Of a stretch of 64,000 bases of DNA, positions 2,617 to 48,412 are shown one piece after another. The translations under genes were made by a program, and so were the position numbers. Position 1 is the first letter of the stretch. Every line of letters begins with the position of its first letter. A model generated the notes under the pieces. It ran no database searches, was not told the origin of the DNA, and was given only the letters and a program-made list of their open reading frames with translations. Source of the stretch: an uncultured candidate division Zixibacteria bacterium (GTDB lineage: Bacteria > Zixibacteria > MSB-5A5 > UBA10806). The stretch spans positions 2,463 through 66,462 of the forward strand of contig CAWDFP010000002.1 of the NCBI GenBank assembly GCA_963801605.1, read 5' to 3'.

Positions 2617-3756
2617 ATGACATTTAAGCAAATGATGCAGGAAATGCAAAACCGGCATTCTTCAGACATGCATTTAAGAGTCGGTTTAAGGCCAACGGTT
2701 AGAGTCGACGGCAGATTGGTTTATATCGACGACCAGATTCTGATGCCCGATGATATCGATAAGATACTGGCCCAAATTCTGAGCTCTGAACAGAAAGACC
2801 GCTTTCATCAGAAACGAGAAATGGACCTGGCGCTGTCGATCTCAAAAATGGGCCGATTCCGTATCAATCTGTATAAACAGCGCGGTACGGTTGGTATCGC
2901 TATCAGGCAGGTAAACACCAAGGTGCCCGGCTTTGCGGAATTGAATCTACCCGAGGTAATTAAAGATATTTCCGAGGCCAAGCGCGGATTGATCATTGTC
3001 ACCGGTACCACCGGATCAGGCAAATCGACGTCCCTGGCCGCCATGGTAGAGCATATCAACAGCAACCGGGCGGAAAATATTCTGACCATTGAAGATCCCA
3101 TTGAATATATCTATCGCGATAAAAAGTCGATCATCTCCCAGCGTGAGGTTGGCGGCGATACCGAAAGTTTCGCGGCCGCCCTGCGTCATGCGTTCCGTCA
3201 GGACCCCGATATTATCCTGATCGGTGAGATTCGCGACTCGGATACCATGGGAATCGCGCTGACTGCCGCCGACACCGGCCACCTGGTCCTGACCACTTTG
3301 CACACCTTAAATACGATCGAGACCATTTCGCGAATTATTTCATTTTTCCCGCCGCATCAGCATACGCAGATCAGGCTGCTATTAGCGGGCACACTCAAGG
3401 CTATCGTTTGTCAGAGACTGCTGCCGCGTATCGACGGTCCCGGCCGAATCCCGGCGGTCGAGGTTTTGGTTTCAACGGCGTCAATCCGCGAGGCGATCGT
3501 TGACCCCTCCAAGACAAATTCGATTATGGAGCTCGTGGAGCAGGGGGCTATTCAATACGGCATGCAGAGTTTCGATCAGTCGATCATGCGGCTGTATCGG
3601 TCCGGCTTTATCAGCTATGAGGAAGCCATGAGCCAATGCAGCAACCCTGACGATTTCGACCTGCGTGTCAAGGGGATTACCTCGGCCTCGGATCGCGGCT
3701 GGAACGAATTTGACGTTAAGAATAATCCCAAGCCTAAAGAAAAATTATCGTTTTAA
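2617..3756 (+). CDS. pilT: Type IV pilus retraction ATPase PilT family
   Basis: Walker A GTTGSGKST, Walker B PDIILIGEIRD and His-box GHLVLTTLHT. At 379 aa it has PilT/PilU size and layout. Confidence 0.9.
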   Translation: MTFKQMMQEMQNRHSSDMHLRVGLRPTVRVDGRLVYIDDQILMPDDIDKILAQILSSEQKDRFHQKREMDLALSISKMGRFRINLYKQRGTVGIAIRQVNTKVPGFAELNLPEVIKDISEAKRGLIIVTGTTGSGKSTSLAAMVEHINSNRAENILTIEDPIEYIYRDKKSIISQREVGGDTESFAAALRHAFRQDPDIILIGEIRDSDTMGIALTAADTGHLVLTTLHTLNTIETISRIISFFPPHQHTQIRLLLAGTLKAIVCQRLLPRIDGPGRIPAVEVLVSTASIREAIVDPSKTNSIMELVEQGAIQYGMQSFDQSIMRLYRSGFISYEEAMSQCSNPDDFDLRVKGITSASDRGWNEFDVKNNPKPKEKLSF

Positions 3757-37029: not shown

Positions 37030-37165
37030 TGGCCCGGCTTGAAATGAACTGCTATAATCCTAAAATTATTCGGTAATCGTAGAGCAAACGAAACTGAATA
37101 CCATGAATTGCAGTTAATATCATGATAAAAGCGTCCTAAGAATGACGTTTAACAGGAGTGGTGTG

Positions 37166-37873
37166 ATGTACAGCGGCGAATATAAGAAGCTTTATAGAAT
37201 CGACCTGGGCAGGACTCATTACCAGGATGCCTGGGATTTTCAGAAAAAACTGGTGACTTTACGATCCGAAAAAAAAATACCGGATTGCCTTGTTTTTACC
37301 GAACATGAACCCGTTATCACCATGGGGCGGGCATCATCTCCGAAGAATCTACTCTGTTCCGCTCAATATCTGGCAGAGCATCATATCGATTCGTTCGAGA
37401 TCGAGCGCGGCGGCGATATCACCTTTCATGGTCCTGGGCAGTTGATCGCCTACCCGATTATCGATCTCAACTCGCACGGCCGCGATCTTCATCGCTACCT
37501 TCGTGATCTGGAAAATCTGGTCATTGTCACATTATCCGACCTGGGACTCGAAGCCGGTGTTAAGAAGGGGCTGACGGGTGTTTGGATCAAGGATACTAAG
37601 TTAGCGGCGATCGGAGTAGCCGTTTCGCGCTGGATAACATATCATGGGTTGGCGCTCAATGTGAATACCGATTTAGACTATTTTAAGCTGATCGTCCCCT
37701 GCGGTATCTCGAAATACGATGTCAGTTCGATTGCTAAACAACTTGGCAGAGAAACTGATCTGGCGATAGTCAACGATTTAATGGCTGCCAATTTTGCGCG
37801 AATATTTGGCTACGAAATTGAAGTTATTAAAGATATAGATTCAATAATCACCGAAATAGCAACTGTGGAATAA
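37166..37873 (+). CDS. lipB: Octanoyltransferase LipB
   Basis: ERGGDITFHGPGQL, KLAAIGVAV and IVPCGI catalytic motifs. The ATG at 37166 has an AGGAG 7 nt upstream; the ORF-track start is ATG 37142. Confidence 0.9.
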   Translation: MYSGEYKKLYRIDLGRTHYQDAWDFQKKLVTLRSEKKIPDCLVFTEHEPVITMGRASSPKNLLCSAQYLAEHHIDSFEIERGGDITFHGPGQLIAYPIIDLNSHGRDLHRYLRDLENLVIVTLSDLGLEAGVKKGLTGVWIKDTKLAAIGVAVSRWITYHGLALNVNTDLDYFKLIVPCGISKYDVSSIAKQLGRETDLAIVNDLMAANFARIFGYEIEVIKDIDSIITEIATVE

Positions 37874-37892
37874 CTGATAAATAAAGGTGCTT

Positions 37893-38519
37893 ATGCAAAT
37901 AACTGAGCCCCGGATTAACGAATATATCCATAGCCTGCTGCCGTCAAAGGACAAGGTACTGGCTCAAATGGAAGCTTTCGCCAGAAAGAATAATTTTCCG
38001 ATAATCGGCCCGCTTGTCGGCCCTATTCTAAGGCAATTGGCGATAGTCTCGGGCGCGAAAAAAATCATCGAATTGGGTTCCGGTTACGGCTATTCGGCTT
38101 ACTGGTTCGCCGGGGGCCTGATAAAAGGCGGCAAAATTATTTGTACGGATAACTCTGAGGAAAATCGCGTTAAGGCCCTGGCGTATCTAAAAAGAGGCGG
38201 TTTTGGTTCGATGATCGATTACAGGGTTGGAGACGCTCTCGAAATACTTTCCAATCTCAAGGGACCTTTCGATATCATCTTTAATGATATCGATAAAAAA
38301 GATTATCCGAAAGCGTTGGAACTGGCAATTCCTCGGCTCAGGCCGGGTGGACTTTTTATTACCGATAATGTCTTATGGTCAGGACGAGTAATCGGCACTA
38401 AACCCGACGCTACGACGAAAGCTATTCTGGAATTCAACCGTAAGCTATTCAAAAGCAAACATCTGCTATCATCAATTATCCCTATCCGTGACGGTCTGGC
38501 TGTCGCAGTGAAGCTATAG
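37893..38519 (+). CDS. Class I SAM-dependent O-methyltransferase (caffeoyl-CoA OMT / YrrM-like)
   Basis: Motif I IIELGSGYGYS, with FNDIDKKDY and GGLFITDNVLW. The likely start is ATG 37893; the ORF-track start is GTG 37887. Confidence 0.85.
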   Translation: MQITEPRINEYIHSLLPSKDKVLAQMEAFARKNNFPIIGPLVGPILRQLAIVSGAKKIIELGSGYGYSAYWFAGGLIKGGKIICTDNSEENRVKALAYLKRGGFGSMIDYRVGDALEILSNLKGPFDIIFNDIDKKDYPKALELAIPRLRPGGLFITDNVLWSGRVIGTKPDATTKAILEFNRKLFKSKHLLSSIIPIRDGLAVAVKL

Positions 38520-41010: not shown

Positions 41011-41097
41011 ACCTGTTGGCTCCTCCGGTTAATTAAGGGCGATATGAGTGTTACTAACAAGTACGCCCTCTTGAAATAGGGCGACCTTTAAAAATCA

Positions 41098-41127
41098 TAT
41101 TTAGGACTTCGCGACAATGCCTGTCAA
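41098..41127 (-). promoter_or_regulatory. Sigma70-type promoter for hppA
   Basis: On the minus strand: TTGACA (41127-41122), an 18-nt spacer and TAAATA (41103-41098), about 90 nt upstream of the hppA ATG. Confidence 0.35.
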
Positions 41128-41207
41128 TCGAATAATCGGGCAATTCCAGATTACGAATCCGGAAAAAAAGTCCCTTAGAAATACTCGGAATTATCCGAAA
41201 GAGTTTC

Positions 41208-42338
41208 TTAAATGCTTTCCAGTGACAGGACTTGTCCGGAAGTTATATTCCTTAATAATAATGCTTCTCGTTGTCGAAATGCAAGAAAAATCAGCCGGTC
41301 TCGCGGAATCTCATCAAGGCTTATATCCCCGATATAACGCCATTCCTGCTCTCGGCTCCAGTCGACATCGACTCGGCCCAAGCTTTGAAAGTAAGGCTTA
41401 TCAATATCGGAAAGTGCTTTGTAATCCGCGTCATTCCCATAAATAACGGGCCTGATACCAAGTGAAATGGCGGTTTCTTTCTCGATAGCTATTCCATAAG
41501 GTTCGAAATTCCAATTTACATATTTCGGGCGCCAGCGCATCAGTTTTGTCAGGGCCTGTGATGGGTTAGCCTCGGTAAAACCGATTGCAAAACGTCCTTC
41601 GCGCATTTTATTTGACGACGATCTAATTTTGCCGTCCCTGATAATATTGCCAAGTGTGTCAAAGGCTTGATGAGGATAATTATCTCCGGAAGACAGCAAT
41701 TTCTCGTAAAAATCAGCCTTGCTTTCACCCGGCCAGGGACCGTGGCAGGTTTTGGTCCAATGAGTCAGATAATTCCAATTTTCAAAATCCGAAATAATAT
41801 TGAATTCATAATGTGCGGGGCCCGCCAACGGTTTTTGATATTCGATTTTAAAATCGTTTAAGCACTTTCGGCAAACCTCTTCAACTGAAATAATGGACTC
41901 CAATTTTCCACCGGGACGGATAGATACCGGCACCACTCGCGATGCCAGCTCAATGGCTGCCTGATCCCGTTTTTGCCAGGTATCTTTGGGATATCTGGCG
42001 TCTTCATCAGGCTTGATAAAAATCATGGCTGTTTTATGAGGTTCGAGACGGAACTCCGCCAGCGTTTCGGCAAATACAGTTTCGCCATTTTGATTATCAT
42101 AAATCGGGCTGATGATTACTTGATTTCCGCCAGATTTATTCACTAAATGGATAGTCAATTCCCAGGTCGATAAACCCGCGCTGGTGATAATCGTATAGCC
42201 GGTTTTAACAAGTTCAGGAATAGTTTCTGACGTTTTTCTTACCCAGGAATCGTTGCCGCAGGGGGTTTTTGATTGGCTGCTATTCAGGACAACCGCAAGT
42301 TCATTCGATATTAAGTCTTTATTGCCCTGAATGATCAT
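41208..42338 (-). CDS. Uncharacterised fusion protein: SLOG (Smf/DprA-LOG)-like Rossmann domain plus AbiGi-like C-terminal domain
   Basis: The likely start is ATG 42338; the ORF-track TTG at 42353 abuts the ugd stop. N-terminal motifs are TGYTIITSAGLSTWELTIHLVNKSGGNQVIISP and KRDQAAIELASRVVPVSIRPGGKLESI. C-terminal motifs are YLTHWTK, FAIGFTEANPSQ, EPYGIAIEKETAISLGIRPVIYG and REQEWR. Confidence 0.45.
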   Translation of the reverse strand: MIIQGNKDLISNELAVVLNSSQSKTPCGNDSWVRKTSETIPELVKTGYTIITSAGLSTWELTIHLVNKSGGNQVIISPIYDNQNGETVFAETLAEFRLEPHKTAMIFIKPDEDARYPKDTWQKRDQAAIELASRVVPVSIRPGGKLESIISVEEVCRKCLNDFKIEYQKPLAGPAHYEFNIISDFENWNYLTHWTKTCHGPWPGESKADFYEKLLSSGDNYPHQAFDTLGNIIRDGKIRSSSNKMREGRFAIGFTEANPSQALTKLMRWRPKYVNWNFEPYGIAIEKETAISLGIRPVIYGNDADYKALSDIDKPYFQSLGRVDVDWSREQEWRYIGDISLDEIPRDRLIFLAFRQREALLLRNITSGQVLSLESI

Positions 42339-42353
42339 ACAATGCTGAAACAA

Positions 42354-43649
42354 TCAACTTCTGCCAAAACCTGCGTAGCGGAATCCGGCTTTGCGTGCCA
42401 ACTCGGGTAAATGAATATTGCGCGGGTCCAGCAGAGCATCACCTTTCATAAGATTTTTTAAGGCGGGTAAATCAAGCTCGCGGAATTCATTCCATTCGGT
42501 CATAAAAATCACGATGTCGGCGTCCCGACAGGCATCGTATGAATTTTTGGCGTAATCAATTTGAGGGAAAAGTTTCTTGAAATTGTCCATAGCTACCGGA
42601 TCGTAAGCCGAAACGATACCACCCTCCGCCAACAAGCGCTCAACAACGGACAAACTTGGTGAATTGCGGATATCATCCGTATTGCTCTTAAACGATAAGC
42701 CCAGGATGGCCAAACGCATTCCCTCGATTTTGCCAAGCAGATTATGAGCCTTAGTTATCACAAGTTCCCTTTGGCCATTATTTATGCACTGAACTGCCCT
42801 GGGGATTTTCGGTTCCAGCCCGCATTTTTCCTCCATGGAAATCAGGGCGGCAATATCCTTTACCAGGCAGGAACCACCATAACCTGGAGAGGGGTGCAAG
42901 AACTTGGGCCCGATTCTGCCATCCATGCCCATCGCCTTGGAAACGGTTACAACATCCGCGCCGACGAAATCGCAGATGCCGGCAATTTCATTGATGAAGG
43001 AAATCTTGGTTGCGAGAAAACAGTTGGAGGCATACTTGATAAGCTCGGCGGTAGTATTGTCCGTAACTACTGTAGGAGTTTCGATAAGATATAATCCCCG
43101 ATAAACCTCGCGCATGACCTCCTCGGCTTTTTTCGAGGGAACTCCAAGTATTATCCTGTTGGGAAGAAGAAAATCCTGAACCGCCGAACCCTCACGAAGG
43201 AATTCCGGATTAGAAACAACATCGAATGGCCCTTTAGCGCTGATTTTGATTTTTTCATATACCTGTCGATGAGTCCCGACGGGCACAGTTGATTTTATGG
43301 CAATAACCTTATAATCGGTAATAAGCGCTCCCAGCTCCAGGCTGATATCAAACAGATCACTTAAATCCGGATCGCCATTGTCGCCTTCGGGTGTGCCTAC
43401 TGCCAGAAATATGACTCGACTGGAATCAACAGCCTTTTTCAAATCCGAGGAAAAAGTCAGGCGCCCCTTAACGACGTTTCGTTTCATTATGTCCGAGAGG
43501 CCAATTTCATAGATAGGTATTCCGCCGTTATTGAGGATTTCGATTTTTTGGCGGTCTTTATCGTAGCAAACCACGTCGTTTCCCAAATCGGCCAAACCGG
43601 CTCCGGCTACCAGGCCGACATATCCGGTTCCGACGATACAAATTTTCAC
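42354..43649 (-). CDS. ugd: UDP-glucose 6-dehydrogenase
   Basis: MKICIVGTGYVGLVAGAGLADLGNDV (NAD fold), catalytic GYGGSCLVKD and LGLSFKSNTDDIRNSP. 431 aa. Confidence 0.95.
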   Translation of the reverse strand: MKICIVGTGYVGLVAGAGLADLGNDVVCYDKDRQKIEILNNGGIPIYEIGLSDIMKRNVVKGRLTFSSDLKKAVDSSRVIFLAVGTPEGDNGDPDLSDLFDISLELGALITDYKVIAIKSTVPVGTHRQVYEKIKISAKGPFDVVSNPEFLREGSAVQDFLLPNRIILGVPSKKAEEVMREVYRGLYLIETPTVVTDNTTAELIKYASNCFLATKISFINEIAGICDFVGADVVTVSKAMGMDGRIGPKFLHPSPGYGGSCLVKDIAALISMEEKCGLEPKIPRAVQCINNGQRELVITKAHNLLGKIEGMRLAILGLSFKSNTDDIRNSPSLSVVERLLAEGGIVSAYDPVAMDNFKKLFPQIDYAKNSYDACRDADIVIFMTEWNEFRELDLPALKNLMKGDALLDPRNIHLPELARKAGFRYAGFGRS

Positions 43650-44746
43650 GCTTTAACCTCCTGGATTACCCGCCGATCCTTGCCGTTGGTGCGGGAAAAC
43701 CCGGAACCAACGCCGCTAATGGCTATAAAAATAGCCCCTAATCCCGCGAGCATATAAAAAGTGATAAATCGCCAGGCGCCAATCAGAATAGGTAGGATCG
43801 GGGACGGTACTACGCCGCTGAAAACCAGTCCGAAAGTAATTTCGGCGCCACCTACTGCGCCCGGAGTTGGAATCAGGATCATGGCGCTGAAAACTACCCA
43901 TTGCAAAAGAAAATACAAAGCGAAATCGGGCTGATAGCCCAAACCGAGCACCAGGGCGCTTACGGCCCCATAACGGCAGCACCATCCTAACCCCGAAAAC
44001 AGGGTGCATATACCCAGCGTTAGCTTGCCGTTTCCCACGACAAATTTAAGGGCCGATATGAATTGCTGTCCAAAGTTTTTAAGCTGCTGATTTATTCGTT
44101 CGACGAAATTAAATCGTCCCAAATTTTCAGATGCTTTGTCTTTATCACGTCCCCATTTTCCGAATTTAATGATAAGATATACAATCACCAGAGCAGTTAA
44201 GATCGCAATGACAATCGGCCAGTGTGAAATCAGATGATCCAATGCGAACCTTACATATTTATTGCTCCAGGCCTGGCTTAATATTATTACCAGGGGAAGG
44301 GATATCGCAAAAAATATGGCATCCTCAATCGTACCCAAAAATGTCAGAAGAGCAGCTTCTCCCGGAGTGAAGCCATATCTAATTAAAAAACCGAGTTTAA
44401 AATATCCGCCGCCTGTCGAGGATGGTGTTACGGCGCTTCCAACGTCAGTTACCATAGCAGTCTTTAAGGCTTGAATTGGCTTCAAACCATGAGAAAATAC
44501 TCTGCTCCAGAGAAGAAGCCTGACTGTATGAGTAAACCAGGGCACGATTGCCAGGAACACCGCCAGAATGAGATAGCCGGGATGGATATCAACTACATCC
44601 TTTAGAATGCGAAGTTTGCTTGTAGTCAGGATATAAATAATGTTGACGGCAATCGCAGAAGGTATGAGTATGGCTATCGGCTTAAATAACTTTTCCAGCC
44701 GGAACTCCCTTAGGGAGCCAGGACCATTTTTGGAGGGTTGTACCAT
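43646..44746 (-). CDS. Flippase-like / LPG-synthase-TM (UPF0104) family membrane protein
   Basis: 366 aa with about 8 TM helices. The segment TDVGSAVTPSSTGGGYFKLGFL is typical of the UPF0104 family. It overlaps ugd by 4 nt. Confidence 0.7.
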   Translation of the reverse strand: MVQPSKNGPGSLREFRLEKLFKPIAILIPSAIAVNIIYILTTSKLRILKDVVDIHPGYLILAVFLAIVPWFTHTVRLLLWSRVFSHGLKPIQALKTAMVTDVGSAVTPSSTGGGYFKLGFLIRYGFTPGEAALLTFLGTIEDAIFFAISLPLVIILSQAWSNKYVRFALDHLISHWPIVIAILTALVIVYLIIKFGKWGRDKDKASENLGRFNFVERINQQLKNFGQQFISALKFVVGNGKLTLGICTLFSGLGWCCRYGAVSALVLGLGYQPDFALYFLLQWVVFSAMILIPTPGAVGGAEITFGLVFSGVVPSPILPILIGAWRFITFYMLAGLGAIFIAISGVGSGFSRTNGKDRRVIQEVKA

Positions 44747-44754
44747 AATCAGGA

Positions 44755-45999
44755 CTAATCCACCTGCCTGGGTTTTTGATCTTGCAGTAGTCCATCAAAA
44801 AGTTTGCGGTAAAGTCCGAAAATGCGATCGGGCGCAAATCGGCGAAGAGTATATTCGGCGGCTCGTCCGCGAAGTGTTTCGAGCTTGAGATGATCATCGA
44901 GAAGCGCCATGATGATTCCGAGCATGCCGCCATTATCACCCTCGGGAACACAAAAACCATTTTGGCCATCGGATACCGCATCGAGAATACCCTCAATACC
45001 GGACGCCACCACAGGAACGCCGCGGACGGCGGCCTCCAATACAACCAATCCGAACCCTTCCATATCGCCTTCGACGGTGACGTTGGGCATAATGAACAGG
45101 TCTGCTGCCGCGTAGATATATTCCTTTAGTTCCTGAGAGACTCCGTTGAGATAGAAAATTCGAGGATGAGCGCTCAAGCGCACCAGATCATCATGCATGC
45201 TGTAAGAGCCAGCGGCCAATTGAAGGTATCGATGCAACTTCTCTCCCAAAAGCGGTCTGATAGATCCGAGCCAGACCGGCGTTTTGGGTTTGGGGCCGGC
45301 CACGATATAAATATAATCATCAGGCAAATGAGGGAAAACATCGGTGATAAACCGATCAAATCCCTTGCGTTTGACCGGTCTGCCGATACTTATCAATACT
45401 TTTTTTTGACGAAGGTCTATTCCGATCTCTCGCTGTAATCGGCCATACAGCGCCTCGTTTTTAGGGATATGGGTTGGAGCTTTTTCAGCCGCGGGAGGAA
45501 TGATCTCAATTTTGGAGGGATGGATTCCCCGTCGCTTAACCTGCTCCGCGGTAGCCCGGCTGATTGTGGTGATTTTATCGAGTTTTTCTAAAGCGCTGCA
45601 AAGCTGTTCCTGATACCAGGGGATCGGCAGGATCAAATCCAGACCATGAACCGCGCCGACAACTTTTTTATCCGATGTAGATCGAATTCTCCCGCCTGTC
45701 AAGCAGGTGAAAGCATCGTCACAATGCACCAGGGCGGCATCGCTCCGACTTGTTTTATAGTTGAAAAGCGGAATTGAAAGCGGCATCGCCCAATCAGGGC
45801 CTTTCCAAATTATCTTTCGGATATCGTAGTACCGGGAAAGCCCGTCGATTAATATGGTGCTGAGACGCTGGACGCCTCCGACCCCTGCCGGATTTTGACG
45901 AAGTAAAAAAATTACTTTGGGATTGAGCAGATCAGTCGGGGGTGCGGTTGGAGACTCTGTTACAACTCTATAATTATCGATTAAGATTTTATGCGGCAA
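44755..45999 (-). CDS. Glycosyltransferase family 4 (GT-B)
   Basis: MPNVTVEGDMEGFGLVVLEAAVRGVPVVASGIEGILDAVSDGQNGFCV. Confidence 0.85.
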   Translation of the reverse strand: MPHKILIDNYRVVTESPTAPPTDLLNPKVIFLLRQNPAGVGGVQRLSTILIDGLSRYYDIRKIIWKGPDWAMPLSIPLFNYKTSRSDAALVHCDDAFTCLTGGRIRSTSDKKVVGAVHGLDLILPIPWYQEQLCSALEKLDKITTISRATAEQVKRRGIHPSKIEIIPPAAEKAPTHIPKNEALYGRLQREIGIDLRQKKVLISIGRPVKRKGFDRFITDVFPHLPDDYIYIVAGPKPKTPVWLGSIRPLLGEKLHRYLQLAAGSYSMHDDLVRLSAHPRIFYLNGVSQELKEYIYAAADLFIMPNVTVEGDMEGFGLVVLEAAVRGVPVVASGIEGILDAVSDGQNGFCVPEGDNGGMLGIIMALLDDHLKLETLRGRAAEYTLRRFAPDRIFGLYRKLFDGLLQDQKPRQVD

Positions 46000-46037
46000 A
46001 ATAAACCCTCGTCTCTACCAAAGAATAATCAAAAATA

Positions 46038-47228
46038 TTATAACCGTCGCGCCTTAATAATATTCGGTTCAAATATCGAATCCAAAACCGATTCCGTACC
46101 ATTATTGGATTTACCGTCGGCGATAAGTTCCTCATAGCCGCGGAAGAGCGCTCGGTTAACCTCCCGCCAGCTCCGGCGTGACGCATATTCCTGGGCTTTA
46201 ACGGAAAGAGAGTTTCGTAAAAATTCGTTGGTCAGCAATAGTCCCATTTTTGACGCCAGATCCTCGGCATCTTTAGGAATGGTTTGGAAGCCGGTTTCGC
46301 CATCCTGCACCAAATCCATGACTCCGCCCTCGGCGGCTACCACGCAGGGAAGGCCCGAGGCAGCAGCTTCCAGGACCACATTGCCGAAAGATTCGGTTGT
46401 CGATGGGAATACGAAGATATCGGCTGAGGCATAGGCTCGCGAAAGCTCCTCGCCGCGCATAAAACCGGCCAGGATCGCCTCCGGCAAAACCCTGGCAAGT
46501 TCATTTCTGAGAGGTCCATCACCGACAAACACAAGTTTGAAATCAATTTCTTTTTCTTTTAAGATTCCAAAAGCCTTGATGAGTGTCTCAATATCCTTTT
46601 CCTTAACCAGCCTTCCGGTATAAAGCGCCACCGGGCTACCATCGGGAGACCACTTTTTATGCAATGATGCATCGGCGAAAAGGGGCGAAAAGGATTTCGT
46701 ATCTATGCCGCGTTGCCAGAGGGCTAATCGTTCAAAGCCATGACTTTTCAATTCCTCGATAGTTGCGTTGGATGGTACGAATGTCATCGCCCCTTTGTTA
46801 TAAAACCAGCGTAAGTAATCCCATCCGAACCATTCTATTTTCCCAAAGCCATAATATTTCAAATATGATACGAATCTGGTATGATATGAGTTGACAGCCG
46901 GAATGCCCCGTTCTCTGGCATAGTTGTAAGCGGCCATCCCCATGAAAAAGGGGCTGACGATGTGAACGATATCGGGTTTGAATTTATCCAGTGCAGTTCT
47001 AATATCGTGAAAAACCGGCAAGCCCACGCGGTATTTGGTGTAAAACGGAAAGGGAACCGAAATAACCTCAACTACTTTGCCGCGCCAGCCATCAACACCG
47101 GGTGTGATGGGGGAGAGGAAGAGAAAATCGTGACCTTCATCGGTGAGGGACGCTTTAAGATGCGACAGGGTATGCGTTACGCCATCGATAAAAGGCGGTA
47201 ATACTTCCGTAAAGTAAGCGATTCTCAA
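46038..47228 (-). CDS. Glycosyltransferase family 4 (GT-B)
   Basis: TTG start with an upstream GGAG. MRIAYFTEVLPPFIDGV, and FPSTTESFGNVVLEAAASGLPCVVAAEGGVMDLVQDGETGF. Confidence 0.9.
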   Translation of the reverse strand: MRIAYFTEVLPPFIDGVTHTLSHLKASLTDEGHDFLFLSPITPGVDGWRGKVVEVISVPFPFYTKYRVGLPVFHDIRTALDKFKPDIVHIVSPFFMGMAAYNYARERGIPAVNSYHTRFVSYLKYYGFGKIEWFGWDYLRWFYNKGAMTFVPSNATIEELKSHGFERLALWQRGIDTKSFSPLFADASLHKKWSPDGSPVALYTGRLVKEKDIETLIKAFGILKEKEIDFKLVFVGDGPLRNELARVLPEAILAGFMRGEELSRAYASADIFVFPSTTESFGNVVLEAAASGLPCVVAAEGGVMDLVQDGETGFQTIPKDAEDLASKMGLLLTNEFLRNSLSVKAQEYASRRSWREVNRALFRGYEELIADGKSNNGTESVLDSIFEPNIIKARRL

Positions 47229-47320
47229 TGAAGATTCTCCGTACTAAATCGTTCAAGAATATTCCAGGATATTACCAAATCCCCTGGCAAATGAACCAGC
47301 CAATCCGAATAGAGTAGCGC

Positions 47321-48412
47321 TTATCCTTTCCTTTTTTCAATGCGTTGCAGGACACCCTTTATAAGAAACGCCAATACCGAGGTGGCATCGTCTCTGACTT
47401 CGGCATACTGTCCACCCTCGGATTCCGGTACGAATTTGGCCCATGATACGCCCTCGCGATAAGAACATCCGGACAGGCCACCCCAGTGATCCGGTTCGGG
47501 ACAGATTCGAACGCCGCGCGAATATTTTTTTGGCTTTACGGGCAATCCCTCAAGATACATGATATCGAAAAATGGCGTAATCTGCTGGCCCCAATTGCGA
47601 GGAACTCCGCCGCCAATGGTAAAGATGCTCAAAGAGCCTTGATGATTATAGACGCGCCTGGCGAAATCAAAAACATCGACAAAGGTATTAAATGGCGGCA
47701 CGACCGTTTGCGCAAATGGTTTTTCAAGAAAGGACTTGCTGCTTCGAAGCGCTTTCATCAGGATATCGAGGCTTAATTCGCTATCGGTAAAGGCCGGCAC
47801 ATAGACCGGTACGCCCGCTTTGAAAGCCGACGATAGCATGCCCCGCTGATCCGGATAAAGCTCGGTGAGCAGTTCACCCAATCGTCGGAAAAACTCAGCC
47901 GACCCGGTAACCGGCGATTTGCCGTCGAGAGCGGGTATCAAACGGTCATAGTATTTGGCGATAGTTTTTGAAGTATGCTCAAATGAAACTTCGAGTTCGA
48001 TAGTATCATAAACACGACACATACCTTCCTCATATAGAATAGCATCATCCTTTGAGGGGGCCTTGAAATGCGCCCCTTTCATACCCTCAGTAAGGCCGTG
48101 AGTGACCAGGGCACCCGTTGATACGATAGCATCCACATAACCACGGTCGATAAGTTCGCATATAATTAGGCCCTGTTTGGCGACACTCATGGCGCCGCTT
48201 AAGGTCAGGACCGTAAAATCATTGGGATCGGTAAAAACATCGGTCAGGATTCTGGCAGCCTCTCCGAGCTGCCGTCCGCTAAACGATGTTTTTTCCATGG
48301 CCGCCAGAGCATCGTCGAAATCGTCGATTTTATTGAGATCGATCGGTTCCAGCGGCTCCAGCCCCTCACCTTTGGTAAAGGCTGTTTTTTCTCTCTTTAA
48401 TTCCATTATCAA
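47321..48412 (-). CDS. Deoxyhypusine synthase family protein (bacterial DHS-like, possible homospermidine synthase)
   Basis: SFSGRQLGEAARIL, LTLSGAMSVAKQGLIICELIDRGYVDAIVSTGALVTHGL, IFTIGGGVPRNW and VRICPEPDHWGGLSG follow the DHS fold pattern. Confidence 0.8.
   Translation of the reverse strand: MIMELKREKTAFTKGEGLEPLEPIDLNKIDDFDDALAAMEKTSFSGRQLGEAARILTDVFTDPNDFTVLTLSGAMSVAKQGLIICELIDRGYVDAIVSTGALVTHGLTEGMKGAHFKAPSKDDAILYEEGMCRVYDTIELEVSFEHTSKTIAKYYDRLIPALDGKSPVTGSAEFFRRLGELLTELYPDQRGMLSSAFKAGVPVYVPAFTDSELSLDILMKALRSSKSFLEKPFAQTVVPPFNTFVDVFDFARRVYNHQGSLSIFTIGGGVPRNWGQQITPFFDIMYLEGLPVKPKKYSRGVRICPEPDHWGGLSGCSYREGVSWAKFVPESEGGQYAEVRDDATSVLAFLIKGVLQRIEKRKG

Follow-up and report, generated by a model that had tools for sequence, protein, structure and literature searches.

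The locus and its gene

At the end of a co-oriented run of genes on the minus strand of the window, the 64,000-nucleotide stretch of Zixibacteria DNA that was analysed, lies a gene for an uncharacterised, widely conserved two-domain protein that belongs to a large unnamed family (Table 1). This open reading frame is a real gene rather than a chance one, because it has 377 full-length homologues at E<=1e-3 (identity down to 35 %), its C-terminal domain alone is represented by 2,077 clusters at 50 % identity, and AlphaFold2 models the full protein with confidence (mean pLDDT 90.4, pTM 0.87). Every peptide quoted in the original prediction is found in the translation of the minus-strand frame, namely LAVVLNSSQSK, TGYTIITSAGLSTWELTIHLVNKSGGNQVIISP, KRDQAAIELASRVVPVSIRPGGKLESI, YLTHWTK, FAIGFTEANPSQ, EPYGIAIEKETAISLGIRPVIYG and REQEWR.

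The frame can be read from a TTG (41208-42353) or from an ATG (41208-42338; 376 aa plus stop). Since the homologues begin at the same alignment column as this ATG (MI[IV]QGN...), we place the start at 42338 and not at the TTG at 42353. The gene had been described as abutting the stop codon of ugd (42354-42356), which is correct for the alternative TTG and incorrect for the supported ATG, located 15 nt beyond that stop. Its placement as the last gene after GT4-GT4-UPF0104-ugd agrees with the order found by Pfam, which adds a deoxyhypusine-synthase-like gene further upstream and identifies the downstream neighbour as an H+-PPase. A scan of the operon for promoters and terminators gave counts not clearly above shuffled expectation, with weak hairpins only after the stop codon. 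The GT4 genes of the operon also touch the Pfam 'GT4-conflict' model, at scores far weaker than their generic GT4 matches.

The family comprises at least 1,154 clusters at 50 % identity, none of them named; every homologue that has an annotation name is labelled 'hypothetical', there is no Pfam model for the family, and a PHROGs scan gave nothing informative. In a literature search whose scope did not include the SLOG paper of Burroughs et al. (2015), no paper was found that describes a fusion of a SLOG/DprA domain with an ADP-ribosyltransferase (ART)-like domain, in agreement with the original prediction, which knew of no characterised protein that joins SLOG and AbiGi. Residue conservation, as given throughout, was counted over 117 diverse members of the family.

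Table 1. Coordinates of the two-domain gene, its domains and motifs, and the co-oriented genes upstream.
Feature	Coordinates	Strand	Basis
Two-domain protein, CDS	41208..42338	-	376 aa plus stop at 41208-41210; ATG start at 42338
N-terminal domain, residues 1-158, truncated DprA-type SLOG Rossmannoid	41865..42338	-	Foldseek, hhalign, BLASTP
N19-S20-S21, counterpart of DprA motif 1 (G-[STA]-R), loop after first strand	42276..42284	-	Alignment of 117 members
W121-Q-K-R124-D125, counterpart of DprA motif 2 ([FLY]-x-x-R-[ND])	41964..41978	-	Alignment of 117 members
Inter-domain linker, residues 159-185	41784..41864	-	Sequence and length vary among homologues; alignment and model secondary structure
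C-terminal domain, residues 186-376, probable ART fold, H-Y-E(xE) type	41211..41783	-	Foldseek and sub-threshold HMM matches
H193-W-T195, candidate ART motif I (H-x-T), first strand	41754..41762	-	H193 117/117, T195 113/117; model strand 190-194
F278-E279-P-Y281-G, candidate ART motif II block	41493..41507	-	E279 117/117; Y281 106/117, F in 10 more
Y300 (PVIYG), invariant tyrosine on next strand, alternative or second candidate motif II tyrosine	41439..41441	-	117/117 members
E330-Q-E332-W-R334, candidate ART motif III (E-x-E), strand start	41337..41351	-	E330 116/117, E332 117/117, R334 117/117
Upstream co-oriented genes	42354..48412	-	Pfam
ugd (UDP-glucose dehydrogenase)	42354-43649	-	Pfam
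LPG_synthase_TM/UPF0104	43646-44746	-	Pfam
GT4	44755-45999	-	Pfam
GT4	46038-47228	-	Pfam
Deoxyhypusine-synthase-like	47321-48412	-	Pfam

The N-terminal domain is a truncated DprA-type SLOG fold

The first domain is a cut-down DprA-type SLOG Rossmannoid that keeps counterparts of both motifs of the DprA base pocket. In Foldseek searches with the full-length model, DprA structures are matched at probabilities of 0.99-1.0 (4ljr at E 2.3e-5, as well as 3uqz and 3maj), and further matches in this probability range include ShosA (8zva, E 7.7e-4), LOG proteins (1t35, 5wq3), ThsA and a MoCo carrier protein. The model (pLDDT 90) accordingly presents the three-layer alpha/beta Rossmannoid, superimposable on both DprA and LOG, by which the SLOG superfamily is recognised.

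At the sequence level, Pfam DprA (PF02481) gives no match to the window protein even at E<=10, far from its gathering threshold, and the relationship is instead visible through longer relatives in the family that carry a complete DprA region (hereafter long forms). Specifically, the Pfam model DNA_processg_A matches eight of the ten long forms scanned at E<=0.01, and one of these, P0243, passes its gathering threshold (E 4.1e-11, 42.9 vs 29.6 bits). When only the N-terminal domain is compared with the DprA-positive long forms, hhalign aligns them at 99.6 % (E 1.5e-24), and BLASTP against P0243 reaches E 2e-45. Given that P0243 passes Pfam DprA and that the N-terminal domains align at 99.6 %, we regard the window protein as a divergent, truncated offshoot of DprA. 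A PADLOC scan of family members furthermore returned the DprA-related ShosA (1.4e-10) and PsyrA (3.3e-8). Other searches contributed little: the family profile against E. coli Smf gave an hhalign probability of 0.1, uninformative because a one-sequence template is too weak; phmmer of P0243 against PDB sequences found nothing; and the viral structures of BFVD yielded weak DprA-like phage proteins only. The SLOG/DprA-like character proposed for the N-terminal half is thus borne out by Foldseek (probability 1.0, across DprA, ShosA, LOG and ThsA), by the alignment to Pfam-DprA-positive relatives and by the retained counterparts of the DprA motifs.

DprA grips ssDNA via a single-base pocket built from two motifs, G-[STA]-R and [FLY]-x-x-R-[ND], the second of which shapes the base-binding pocket of HpDprA (PMC3950713). 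In the wider family, motif 1 reads x-S-R, with S20 in 115/117 members and arginine at position 21 in 98/117; the window protein has serine at this position and, in its clade, serine replaces what in HpDprA is the 'switch' R52. Motif 2 is nearly invariant, R124 being present in 116 and D125 in all 117 members. Aligned with the long forms, the short form proves to be missing the SAM-like N-terminal extension as well as the segment that follows the S-G motif, and with it the last beta-alpha-beta found in canonical DprA. It is thus without the full extended Rossmann domain and the SAM-like and/or winged-helix accessory domains that characterise DprA itself. With the last beta-alpha-beta and the SAM domain missing, ssDNA binding may have been lost or altered.

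Membership of the LOG clade was considered for this domain and rejected. The PGGxGTxxE motif of LOG (PF03641) is not conserved, as the window protein has RPGGKLES, of which G144 alone is kept family-wide, and Pfam Lysine_decarbox matches neither the window protein nor the family members; the affinity of the domain is with the DprA clade.

The C-terminal domain is a probable ADP-ribosyltransferase

The C-terminal half is probably an ART-fold domain of the H-Y-E clade, which, judging from the structure model and its sequence motifs, would be nearest to AbiGi, DUF2971 and DarT. As the full-length Foldseek search is dominated by the N-terminal domain, residues 160-376 were modelled separately (pLDDT 89). 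DarT accounts for each of the five best PDB matches of this model (E 3.7e-3 to 1.7e-2, probability 0.75-0.97), with TM of 0.35-0.45 and large rmsd, and other ART folds (Arr, ParT, Tpt1) appear among its non-significant matches. For the window protein alone, Pfam, NCBIfam and PADLOC gave weak AbiGi matches only: 13.5 bits against a cut-off of 22.4 for Pfam PF10899, 11.5 bits against 300 for NCBIfam AbiGI (NF042957), and E 6.4e-4 for PADLOC PDLC02331. Across the family, AbiGi is the sole recurrent Pfam/PADLOC family for this half (15/36, 11/117 and 25/117 members; best E 2.6e-5, from PADLOC), and DUF2971 (PF11185) is a second recurrent match, likewise below threshold (4/36 and 4/117 members, best E 0.007). 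No ART was retrieved when full-length and C-terminal profiles were searched against PDB sequences with HMMER, which returned chance matches only (UL131A, HisF), and Pfam scans of the window protein and of family members gave no match to DarT (PF14487). With Foldseek E-values of ~4e-3 or worse and all HMM matches sub-threshold, the ART assignment is not statistically secure.

Support for the assignment comes from the arrangement of conserved residues. The candidate H, Y and ExE positions fall on or at the start of strands in the model (190-194, 282-286, 299-301 and 332-336), together forming an H-Y-E signature. The AbiGi profiles align over the candidate motif II block (Pfam over residues 279-312, PADLOC over 278-304), and NCBIfam AbiGI aligns around candidate motif III (residues 325-345). 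AbiGi and DUF2971 have both been classed as ART-superfamily families bearing Y and ExE motifs, DUF2971 being described as having a histidine that varies, a strict Y, an ExE and, separating beta-1 from beta-2, a large helical insert (PMC12522546); in DarT, the H-x-T triad H13-I14-T15 contacts the NAD+ ribose (PMC9967889). Because H-x-T, Y and E-x-E-W-R are all intact, the domain is a putative active enzyme, and not a degenerate 'antitoxin', as far as its sequence can tell. The likeness to AbiGi that had been proposed for this half stands only at the level of the superfamily: the AbiGi matches recur but stay below threshold, and the best structural matches are DarT. Membership of the AbiGi family itself was rejected, every curated threshold having failed and an AbiGii partner being absent.

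Genomic behaviour across homologues

We surveyed the neighbourhoods of homologues at 80 loci by clustering all flanking ORFs de novo. All 80 loci come from different assemblies, with one copy per genome, and no conserved partner gene emerged, the most frequent neighbour family being present in at most 13 of the 80 loci. Pairs of loci share at least two neighbour families in 69-100 % of cases at >=50 % protein identity, versus 0 % at 30-40 %. A single copy whose synteny tracks divergence looks vertical, and neither patchy nor mobile. In Zixibacteria and in related uncultured lineages the gene is thus chromosomal, inherited vertically and present once per genome, and it has no obligate partner. 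Where neighbours could be annotated, they are housekeeping genes (LptF/G, LpxC, PurL, TsaD and others). In one sub-clade small neighbours without a Pfam match recur, others being TsaD, YbbR and FG-GAP proteins.

The survey also places the glycosyltransferase operon of the window in perspective. Glycolipid genes are linked to the homologue in 14/80 loci, all in the closest clade and only two of them with ugd (the window not counted); the remaining 66 loci, which are all those at protein identity of ~45 % or less, have no GT4, UPF0104 or ugd neighbour. The position at the tail of GT4-GT4-UPF0104(-ugd) is thus peculiar to one clade and does not mark the function of the family, and the upstream genes are context only, forming no conserved system with the fusion protein. 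It could still be proposed that the protein is an accessory enzyme of a glycolipid or EPS operon, co-transcribed and translationally coupled with GT4-GT4-UPF0104-ugd, that processes nucleotide sugars or modifies a lipid-linked intermediate. The close spacing of the ATG to the ugd stop codon would fit this, as would a homologue that overlaps its UPF0104 gene by 20 nt (locus L001), the preservation of the GT4-GT4-UPF0104-X order in 14 species-level genomes, and the established activity of LOG-type SLOG domains as nucleotide N-glycosidases (PMC9503650). Yet most of the surveyed loci have none of these genes beside the homologue, the N-terminal domain falls in the DprA and not the LOG clade, and Foldseek shows no likeness of either half to enzymes that modify sugars or lipids. 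We consider such a role highly improbable; the glycolipid or nucleotide-sugar alternative raised in the original prediction does not hold as a property of the family.

A role in defence, which had been the other suggestion, deserves more weight, as each domain has relatives in conflict systems (ShosA, PsyrA and the SLOG of ThsA for the N-terminal domain, AbiGi and DarT for the C-terminal one) and as the pairing of an NAD+-using effector with a SLOG domain is an established theme (ThsA; PMC7272460, PMC9503650). The protein could then be a stand-alone anti-phage or abortive-infection effector of ThsA or DarT type, whose SLOG domain would sense an infection-derived nucleotide or phage ssDNA and switch on a toxic ART; the contact of the operon's GT4 genes with the 'GT4-conflict' model may be added, although these matches are far weaker than the generic ones. 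The behaviour of the gene argues otherwise. No AbiGii gene adjoins it, either in the window (neighbours ugd and H+-PPase) or as a conserved neighbour family among the 80 loci; no TIR neighbour was found, and PADLOC ThsA and ThsB gave no match; annotated neighbourhoods contain neither macro nor NADAR genes, and annotated contexts are not defence islands. Furthermore, no matches were found among plasmids (PLSDB), GenBank phages or IMG/VR viral contigs. Taken with the vertical, single-copy pattern above, these results make a defence function unlikely.

Long forms and a possible link to DNA uptake

The long forms offer a different perspective on the origin of the family. At five of the seven long-form loci examined, several of them from related lineages, the gene adjoins PilD (4/7), ComEC (3/7) or MSHA pilus genes (1/7). 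Because these relatives with a complete DprA adjoin PilD and ComEC, machinery for the uptake and processing of DNA is the probable origin of the family.

This raises the question of whether the protein is simply a divergent DprA orthologue, that is, a non-enzymatic recombination mediator that shields incoming ssDNA and loads RecA, with the C-terminal domain serving as a structural or DNA-binding substitute for the winged helix. The long forms, with their passing Pfam DprA scores and their competence and pilus neighbours, speak for such a role, as do the conserved pocket motifs. However, the invariant H, Y and E-x-E-W-R set of the C-terminal domain is typical of catalysis, and the short forms have neither the SAM domain nor the C-terminal portion of the Rossmann fold of DprA. 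Moreover, no competence genes lie near the short forms at any of the 80 loci, and in one of these genomes (L057) a distinct gene of the DprA family lies 7 kb away from the fusion gene. We therefore judge a purely DprA-like function to be rather improbable.

Proposed function

Our preferred reading, to which we assign a probability of roughly 0.55, is that the protein is a cytoplasmic two-domain enzyme, an ART whose target we infer to be a nucleic acid or nucleotide. In its pocket the DprA-like domain would bind either a nucleotide ligand or nucleic acid, ssDNA being the most plausible, and the ART domain would then transfer ADP-ribose from NAD+ onto the bound substrate or onto a recruited target. 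The leading candidate for this reaction is a DarT-like modification of a base or an end of ssDNA. If the protein modified DNA as DarT does, however, toxicity would be expected, since no dedicated reversing hydrolase lies nearby; this argues for a target that is different or tightly regulated.

Perhaps the family represents an undescribed class of chromosomal, partner-less nucleic-acid ARTs, in which a DprA-derived ssDNA module feeds a DarT-like catalytic domain and ADP-ribosylation of ssDNA has a regulatory or housekeeping part in how Zixibacteria and allied phyla take up, recombine or replicate DNA, outside toxin-antitoxin systems and defence. We offer this as a speculative proposal that is doubtful as it stands; under it, the substrate of the long forms would be the incoming transforming DNA beside ComEC and PilD. 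To our knowledge, bacterial DNA or RNA ADP-ribosylation has so far been described only where a toxin or defence system brings its own reversing enzyme (DarTG, DarT-NADAR). The family described here contrasts with these in being large, vertical, single-copy and partner-less, with an intact ART-like signature joined to a putative DprA-type ssDNA or nucleotide pocket, and the proposal, if true, would bring ADP-ribosylation to the central nucleic-acid metabolism of phyla about which little is known. In the long forms, the surroundings with PilD and ComEC provide a concrete, testable tie to natural transformation. Defining the family would clear the label 'hypothetical protein' from more than 1,000 protein clusters. 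The case also counsels caution in annotation: weak AbiGi matches, SLOG likeness and contact with 'GT4-conflict' do not turn a gene into a defence gene if its genomic behaviour is of the housekeeping type.

Comparison with known systems

In AbiG, the abortive-infection pair of lactococci, AbiGi is the first gene. Its HMM alignments cover the FEPYG...PVIY and DW..E.EWR blocks of the fusion protein in collinear order; the fusion differs in scoring below the cut-offs, in having an additional DprA-like domain, and in occurring as a single, vertically transmitted copy without an AbiGii neighbour and away from plasmids and phages. DUF2971, a predicted ART of the H-Y-E clade, has a layout of Y, ExE and helical insert that matches our model (PMC12522546), whereas its matches are weak (best E 0.007), its histidine is variable where that of the fusion family is invariant, and its domain architecture and phyletic range are different.

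ThsA of Thoeris (SIR2-SLOG) likewise has a SLOG on the same chain as a domain that consumes NAD+, and weak structural matches to its SLOG were obtained (7uxt, 8wc0). In the fusion, however, the two domains come in the opposite order, NAD+ would be used by an ART-like domain and not by SIR2, the SLOG lies in the DprA clade and not that of ThsA/YpsA, and the gene stands outside defence islands, without a ThsB/TIR partner.

With DprA/Smf (PF02481, which includes the defence antitoxins ShosA and PsyrA), the fusion protein shares the SLOG Rossmannoid fold, homology via the long forms, counterparts of both ssDNA-pocket motifs and, in the long forms, adjacency to competence and pilus genes. It departs from DprA in its missing Pfam match, SAM-like N-terminal domain, winged-helix C-terminal domain and last beta-alpha-beta, in the serine that replaces the motif 1 arginine in the window clade, and in its ART-like fusion, which no characterised DprA has. 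Unlike ShosA and PsyrA, it is not accompanied by a ShosT or PsyrT PRTase partner.

DarT is the ssDNA thymidine/guanosine ADP-ribosyltransferase of the DarTG toxin-antitoxin systems. The fusion differs from it in showing no sequence-level match and only a modest TM; it belongs to no toxin-antitoxin pair and lies outside defence islands, with no DarG macro or NADAR antitoxin nearby. As far as we know, the E-x-E-W-R motif and the invariant E279 of the fusion family are not features of DarT. Nevertheless, DarT provides the best structural match to the modelled C-terminal domain, accounting for the top five PDB structures, and the two appear to have the arrangement of H-x-T, Y and catalytic E in common (PMC9967889). 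An ssDNA substrate like that of DarT would, moreover, suit a catalytic domain fused to an ssDNA-binding, DprA-like one.

The fusion protein and its family

The gene under study encodes a real, conserved protein, in which every peptide quoted in the original prediction was found; its ATG is taken as the start because homologues begin at the same alignment column with MI[IV]QGN. A word-indexed search returned 377 homologues, and among the 120 matches listed most are full-length at ~375 aa, all named ones are 'hypothetical' and the named organisms are Zixibacteria MAGs. An alignment of 36 sequences has 29 invariant columns distributed across both halves, and the AlphaFold2 model built from it reached pLDDT 90.4 and pTM 0.87. 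A profile of the C-terminal domain retrieved 2,077 clusters at 50 % identity with E≤1e-3 (1,154 of these with E≤1e-30); most measure 350-400 aa with the domain C-terminal, the short architecture of the window, and cluster look-ups give 'hypothetical protein' only. No Pfam or NCBIfam model covers this large, unnamed, chromosomal family, which is single copy: one genome was scanned for each GTDB species, relatives turned up in 140 genomes, and the 80 loci retained come from 80 different assemblies.

Coordinates of the features discussed
Feature	Sequence	Position	Strand	Remarks
Fusion gene	window	41208-42338	-	from ATG, 376 aa; 41208-42353 from TTG
ugd stop codon	window	42354-42356		
Deoxyhypusine-synthase-like gene	window	47321-48412	-	Pfam DS E 9e-54
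Two GT4 genes	window	44755-47228	-	
Antisense ORF	window	41117-41446	+	109 aa
Weak hairpins	window	41184-41199; 41064-41083	-	T-containing tail after each
MshE/T2SSE-type ATPase match	window	~3064-3432		
LipB-like/O-methyltransferase pair	window	37142-38519	+	
Long form	L089	8001-9695		long forms: 470-560 aa, full DprA domain, same C-terminal domain
Long form	L091	4310-5893		
Long form	L093	4764-6272		
Long form	L094	6001-7584		
Long form	L088	8001-9476		
Separate DprA-family gene	L057	2705-3718		337 aa; G-P-R and variant A-M-G-R-N motif; same contig, ~7 kb upstream of the fusion homologue

A DprA-like domain joined to a probable ADP-ribosyltransferase

In the predicted structure, the N-terminal half is a Smf/DprA-LOG (SLOG) fold: Foldseek matched it in the PDB to DprA (4ljr, E 2.3e-5; 3uqz; 3maj) and further to the DprA-like antitoxin ShosA (8zva), LOG proteins, the MoCo carrier protein and the ThsA SLOG domain, all with probability 0.9-1.0. 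PADLOC scans of family members gave ShosA (1.4e-10) and PsyrA (3.3e-8), and the window protein has no match to Pfam DNA_processg_A even at E≤10. The C-domain profile search also retrieves longer relatives (470-660 aa). Eight of the ten long forms scanned match DNA_processg_A at E≤0.01, P0243 above the gathering threshold (E 4.1e-11), and P0001 and P0243 align along the full length of P0001 (E 2e-45). With hhalign, the N-domains alone of 36 short and 10 long forms align at 99.6 % (E 1.5e-24), which together with the structural matches bears out the SLOG/DprA-like reading first made for this half. Two motifs are proposed to form the ssDNA pocket of DprA, G-[STA]-R and [FLY]-x-x-R-[ND] (PMC3950713). 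Across 117 family members, each ≤39 % identical to the query, the first has the counterpart x-S-R (S in 115, R in 98; S replaces R in the window's clade) and the second W-x-x-R-D (R in 116, D in all). Next to the long forms, the short form is missing two segments, an extension at the N-terminus and the final beta-alpha-beta of DprA's Rossmann domain. Judged from the long-form link, the motif counterparts and these missing segments, the N-domain is a truncated, divergent DprA-clade SLOG domain with a strongly constrained ligand pocket.

The rest of the protein is a second conserved domain. Because whole-chain Foldseek did not reach it, residues 160-376 were modelled alone (pLDDT 89.2); DarT structures (7omv, 7yk3, 7omy, 7omx) fill the top five PDB ranks at E 3.7e-3 to 1.7e-2, probability 0.75-0.97 and TM 0.35-0.45, with Rifampin ADP-ribosyltransferase, ParT and Tpt1 among the non-significant ones. 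AbiGi was the only recurring HMM family for this half (Pfam, 15/36 and 11/117 members; PADLOC, 25/117, best E 2.6e-5), and DUF2971 ranked second in recurrence. Neither reached curated cut-offs in the Pfam, NCBIfam and PADLOC scans, and sequence searches of the PDB with family profiles found no ADP-ribosyltransferase (ART). A published survey counts AbiGi as a known ART family and assigns DUF2971 to the H-Y-E clade, where its H varies, its Y is strict, an ExE motif is present and helices are inserted behind beta-1 (PMC12522546). In our family, H193-x-T195 (117 and 113 of 117), E279-P-Y281 (117, 116 and 106), Y300 (117) and E330-x-E332-W-R334 (E330 116, E332 and R334 117) fall within consecutive model strands or at their beginnings, and the first strand is followed by an insert of two helices; the DarT residues in corresponding roles are H13-x-T15, Y71 and E160 (PMC9967889). 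Given the DarT matches, the AbiGi/DUF2971 recurrence and the conserved H/Y/ExE residues, the C-domain is probably an ART capable of catalysis and akin to AbiGi, DUF2971 and DarT, though the statistics are weak. The AbiGi-like half of the original prediction is thereby borne out at superfamily level only; lying below curated cut-offs, the protein is not an AbiGi member. Membership in AbiGi, DarT, LOG or ThsA was considered and rejected, the protein falling outside these families as they are delimited.

Could the protein instead be a non-catalytic DprA orthologue? The invariant catalytic-type residues of the C-domain and the shortened DprA domain speak against this, as does locus L057, whose separate DprA-family gene means that at least one genome carries both.

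Long forms and a possible link to DNA uptake

In four of seven long-form loci, the prepilin peptidase gene PilD lies directly downstream on the same strand (overlapping by 4 nt in L094), with ComEC divergently upstream in three of these four; in a fifth locus, L088, genes for MSHA-type pilus biogenesis come after the long form. The other two lack PilD, ComEC or pilus neighbours, as do the short forms. The arrangement shared among L089, L091, L093, L094 and L088 runs ComEC (divergent), RodZ-like HTH protein, 113-aa ORF, long form, PilD, with the MSHA-type genes instead in L088. This suggests a link of the wider family to competence or the type IV pilus, and because long forms adjoin such genes, the family appears to derive from DprA proper, some lineages being still embedded in DNA-uptake loci.

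Genomic context and inheritance

Upstream of the fusion gene, Pfam identifies on the same strand a deoxyhypusine-synthase-like gene, two GT4 genes, LPG_synthase_TM (UPF0104) and UDP-glucose dehydrogenase (ugd), whose stop codon places the ATG 15 nt past it; an H+-pyrophosphatase gene follows on the same strand. The window is assigned to Candidatus Zixiibacteriota from its nearest relatives and from its flanking genes, which are 64-92 % identical to L008.

Several further observations concern this region. The deoxyhypusine-synthase-like gene, an odd partner for a glycolipid operon, heads the cluster here and keeps its position in 10 of 14 syntenic genomes. Both GT4 genes match Pfam 'GT4-conflict' (40.8 and 26.1 bits; cut-off 26), probably through cross-family overlap and no evidence of a conflict system, since generic GT4 models score far higher. 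The antisense ORF overlapping the 3' end is probably not a gene, because such shadow ORFs of other loci cluster together only through overlap with the conserved coding sequence. Two weak hairpins, located past the stop codon and before the H+-pyrophosphatase gene, may mark the operon end, the scan being not above shuffled expectation. A tblastn match to a secretion ATPase (42 % identity over 125 aa) lies ~38 kb away. The LipB-like/O-methyltransferase pair, 3-4 kb from the gene, recurs 7-10 kb from the homologue in L007, L018, L021 and L026, all four without GT4 operon linkage, consistent with residual regional synteny under vertical descent and local rearrangement.

The survey of homologue neighbourhoods proposed earlier, ugd/GT4 against defence islands, found the order GT4-GT4-UPF0104-fusion only in the 14 closest of 80 loci (protein identity ~46 % or more), ugd intervening only in L008, L012 and the window, and no defence islands in four Pfam-annotated short-form contexts (LptF/G, LpxC-LpxA, PurL, DNA polymerase III alpha and similar). 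Linkage to the glycolipid genes is confined to one clade: the operon is missing from 66 of 80 loci, which disfavours an accessory enzyme of that operon and leaves the nucleotide-sugar or lipid alternative unsupported as a family trait. Other sub-clades keep their own housekeeping neighbours, such as TsaD, YbbR and cystathionine enzymes. When every flanking ORF was clustered de novo, no genuine neighbour family exceeded 13 of 80 loci; the gene has no conserved partner. In one sub-clade of 12 loci (L019, L020, L022, L034, L042, L045, L046, L050, L053, L056, L063, L066), a ~160-aa protein with zinc-ribbon-like CxxC...CxxC motifs and no Pfam match lies directly downstream, convergent on the opposite strand.

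Synteny falls smoothly as the protein diverges, with 69-100 % of pairs sharing at least two neighbour families at ≥50 % identity, 27 % at 40-50 % and 0 % at 30-40 %. Searches by tblastn of 72,556 plasmids and 50,697 phage records found no copy, and IMG/VR contains no relative. Housekeeping contexts, synteny decay and these absences mark the gene as chromosomal and inherited vertically, and not as a mobile defence gene. A stand-alone effector, ThsA- or DarT-like, is disfavoured by this context, distribution and inheritance, and with no conserved partner either, the defence framing behind the original interest is not supported.

Comparison with known systems

For the fusion of a DprA-clade SLOG domain to a probable ART, we propose that the DprA-like pocket would hand the ART domain a substrate, be it ssDNA, some other nucleic acid or a nucleotide, to be ADP-ribosylated in an NAD+-dependent manner. 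No description of a DprA-ART fusion was found in the searchable literature, whose coverage leaves out the 2015 SLOG paper, and named homologues are all 'hypothetical', in keeping with the original prediction that no characterised protein is known to combine SLOG and AbiGi-like domains. The fusion defines a real, large, uncharacterised family that yields a sharp testable hypothesis, its ART assignment being still provisional. Its relation to DprA is that of a truncated offshoot only. In the NAD+/ADPr network, enzymes that use NAD+ occur together with SLOG domains (PMC9503650), and by analogy the fusion protein would work like a member of that network.
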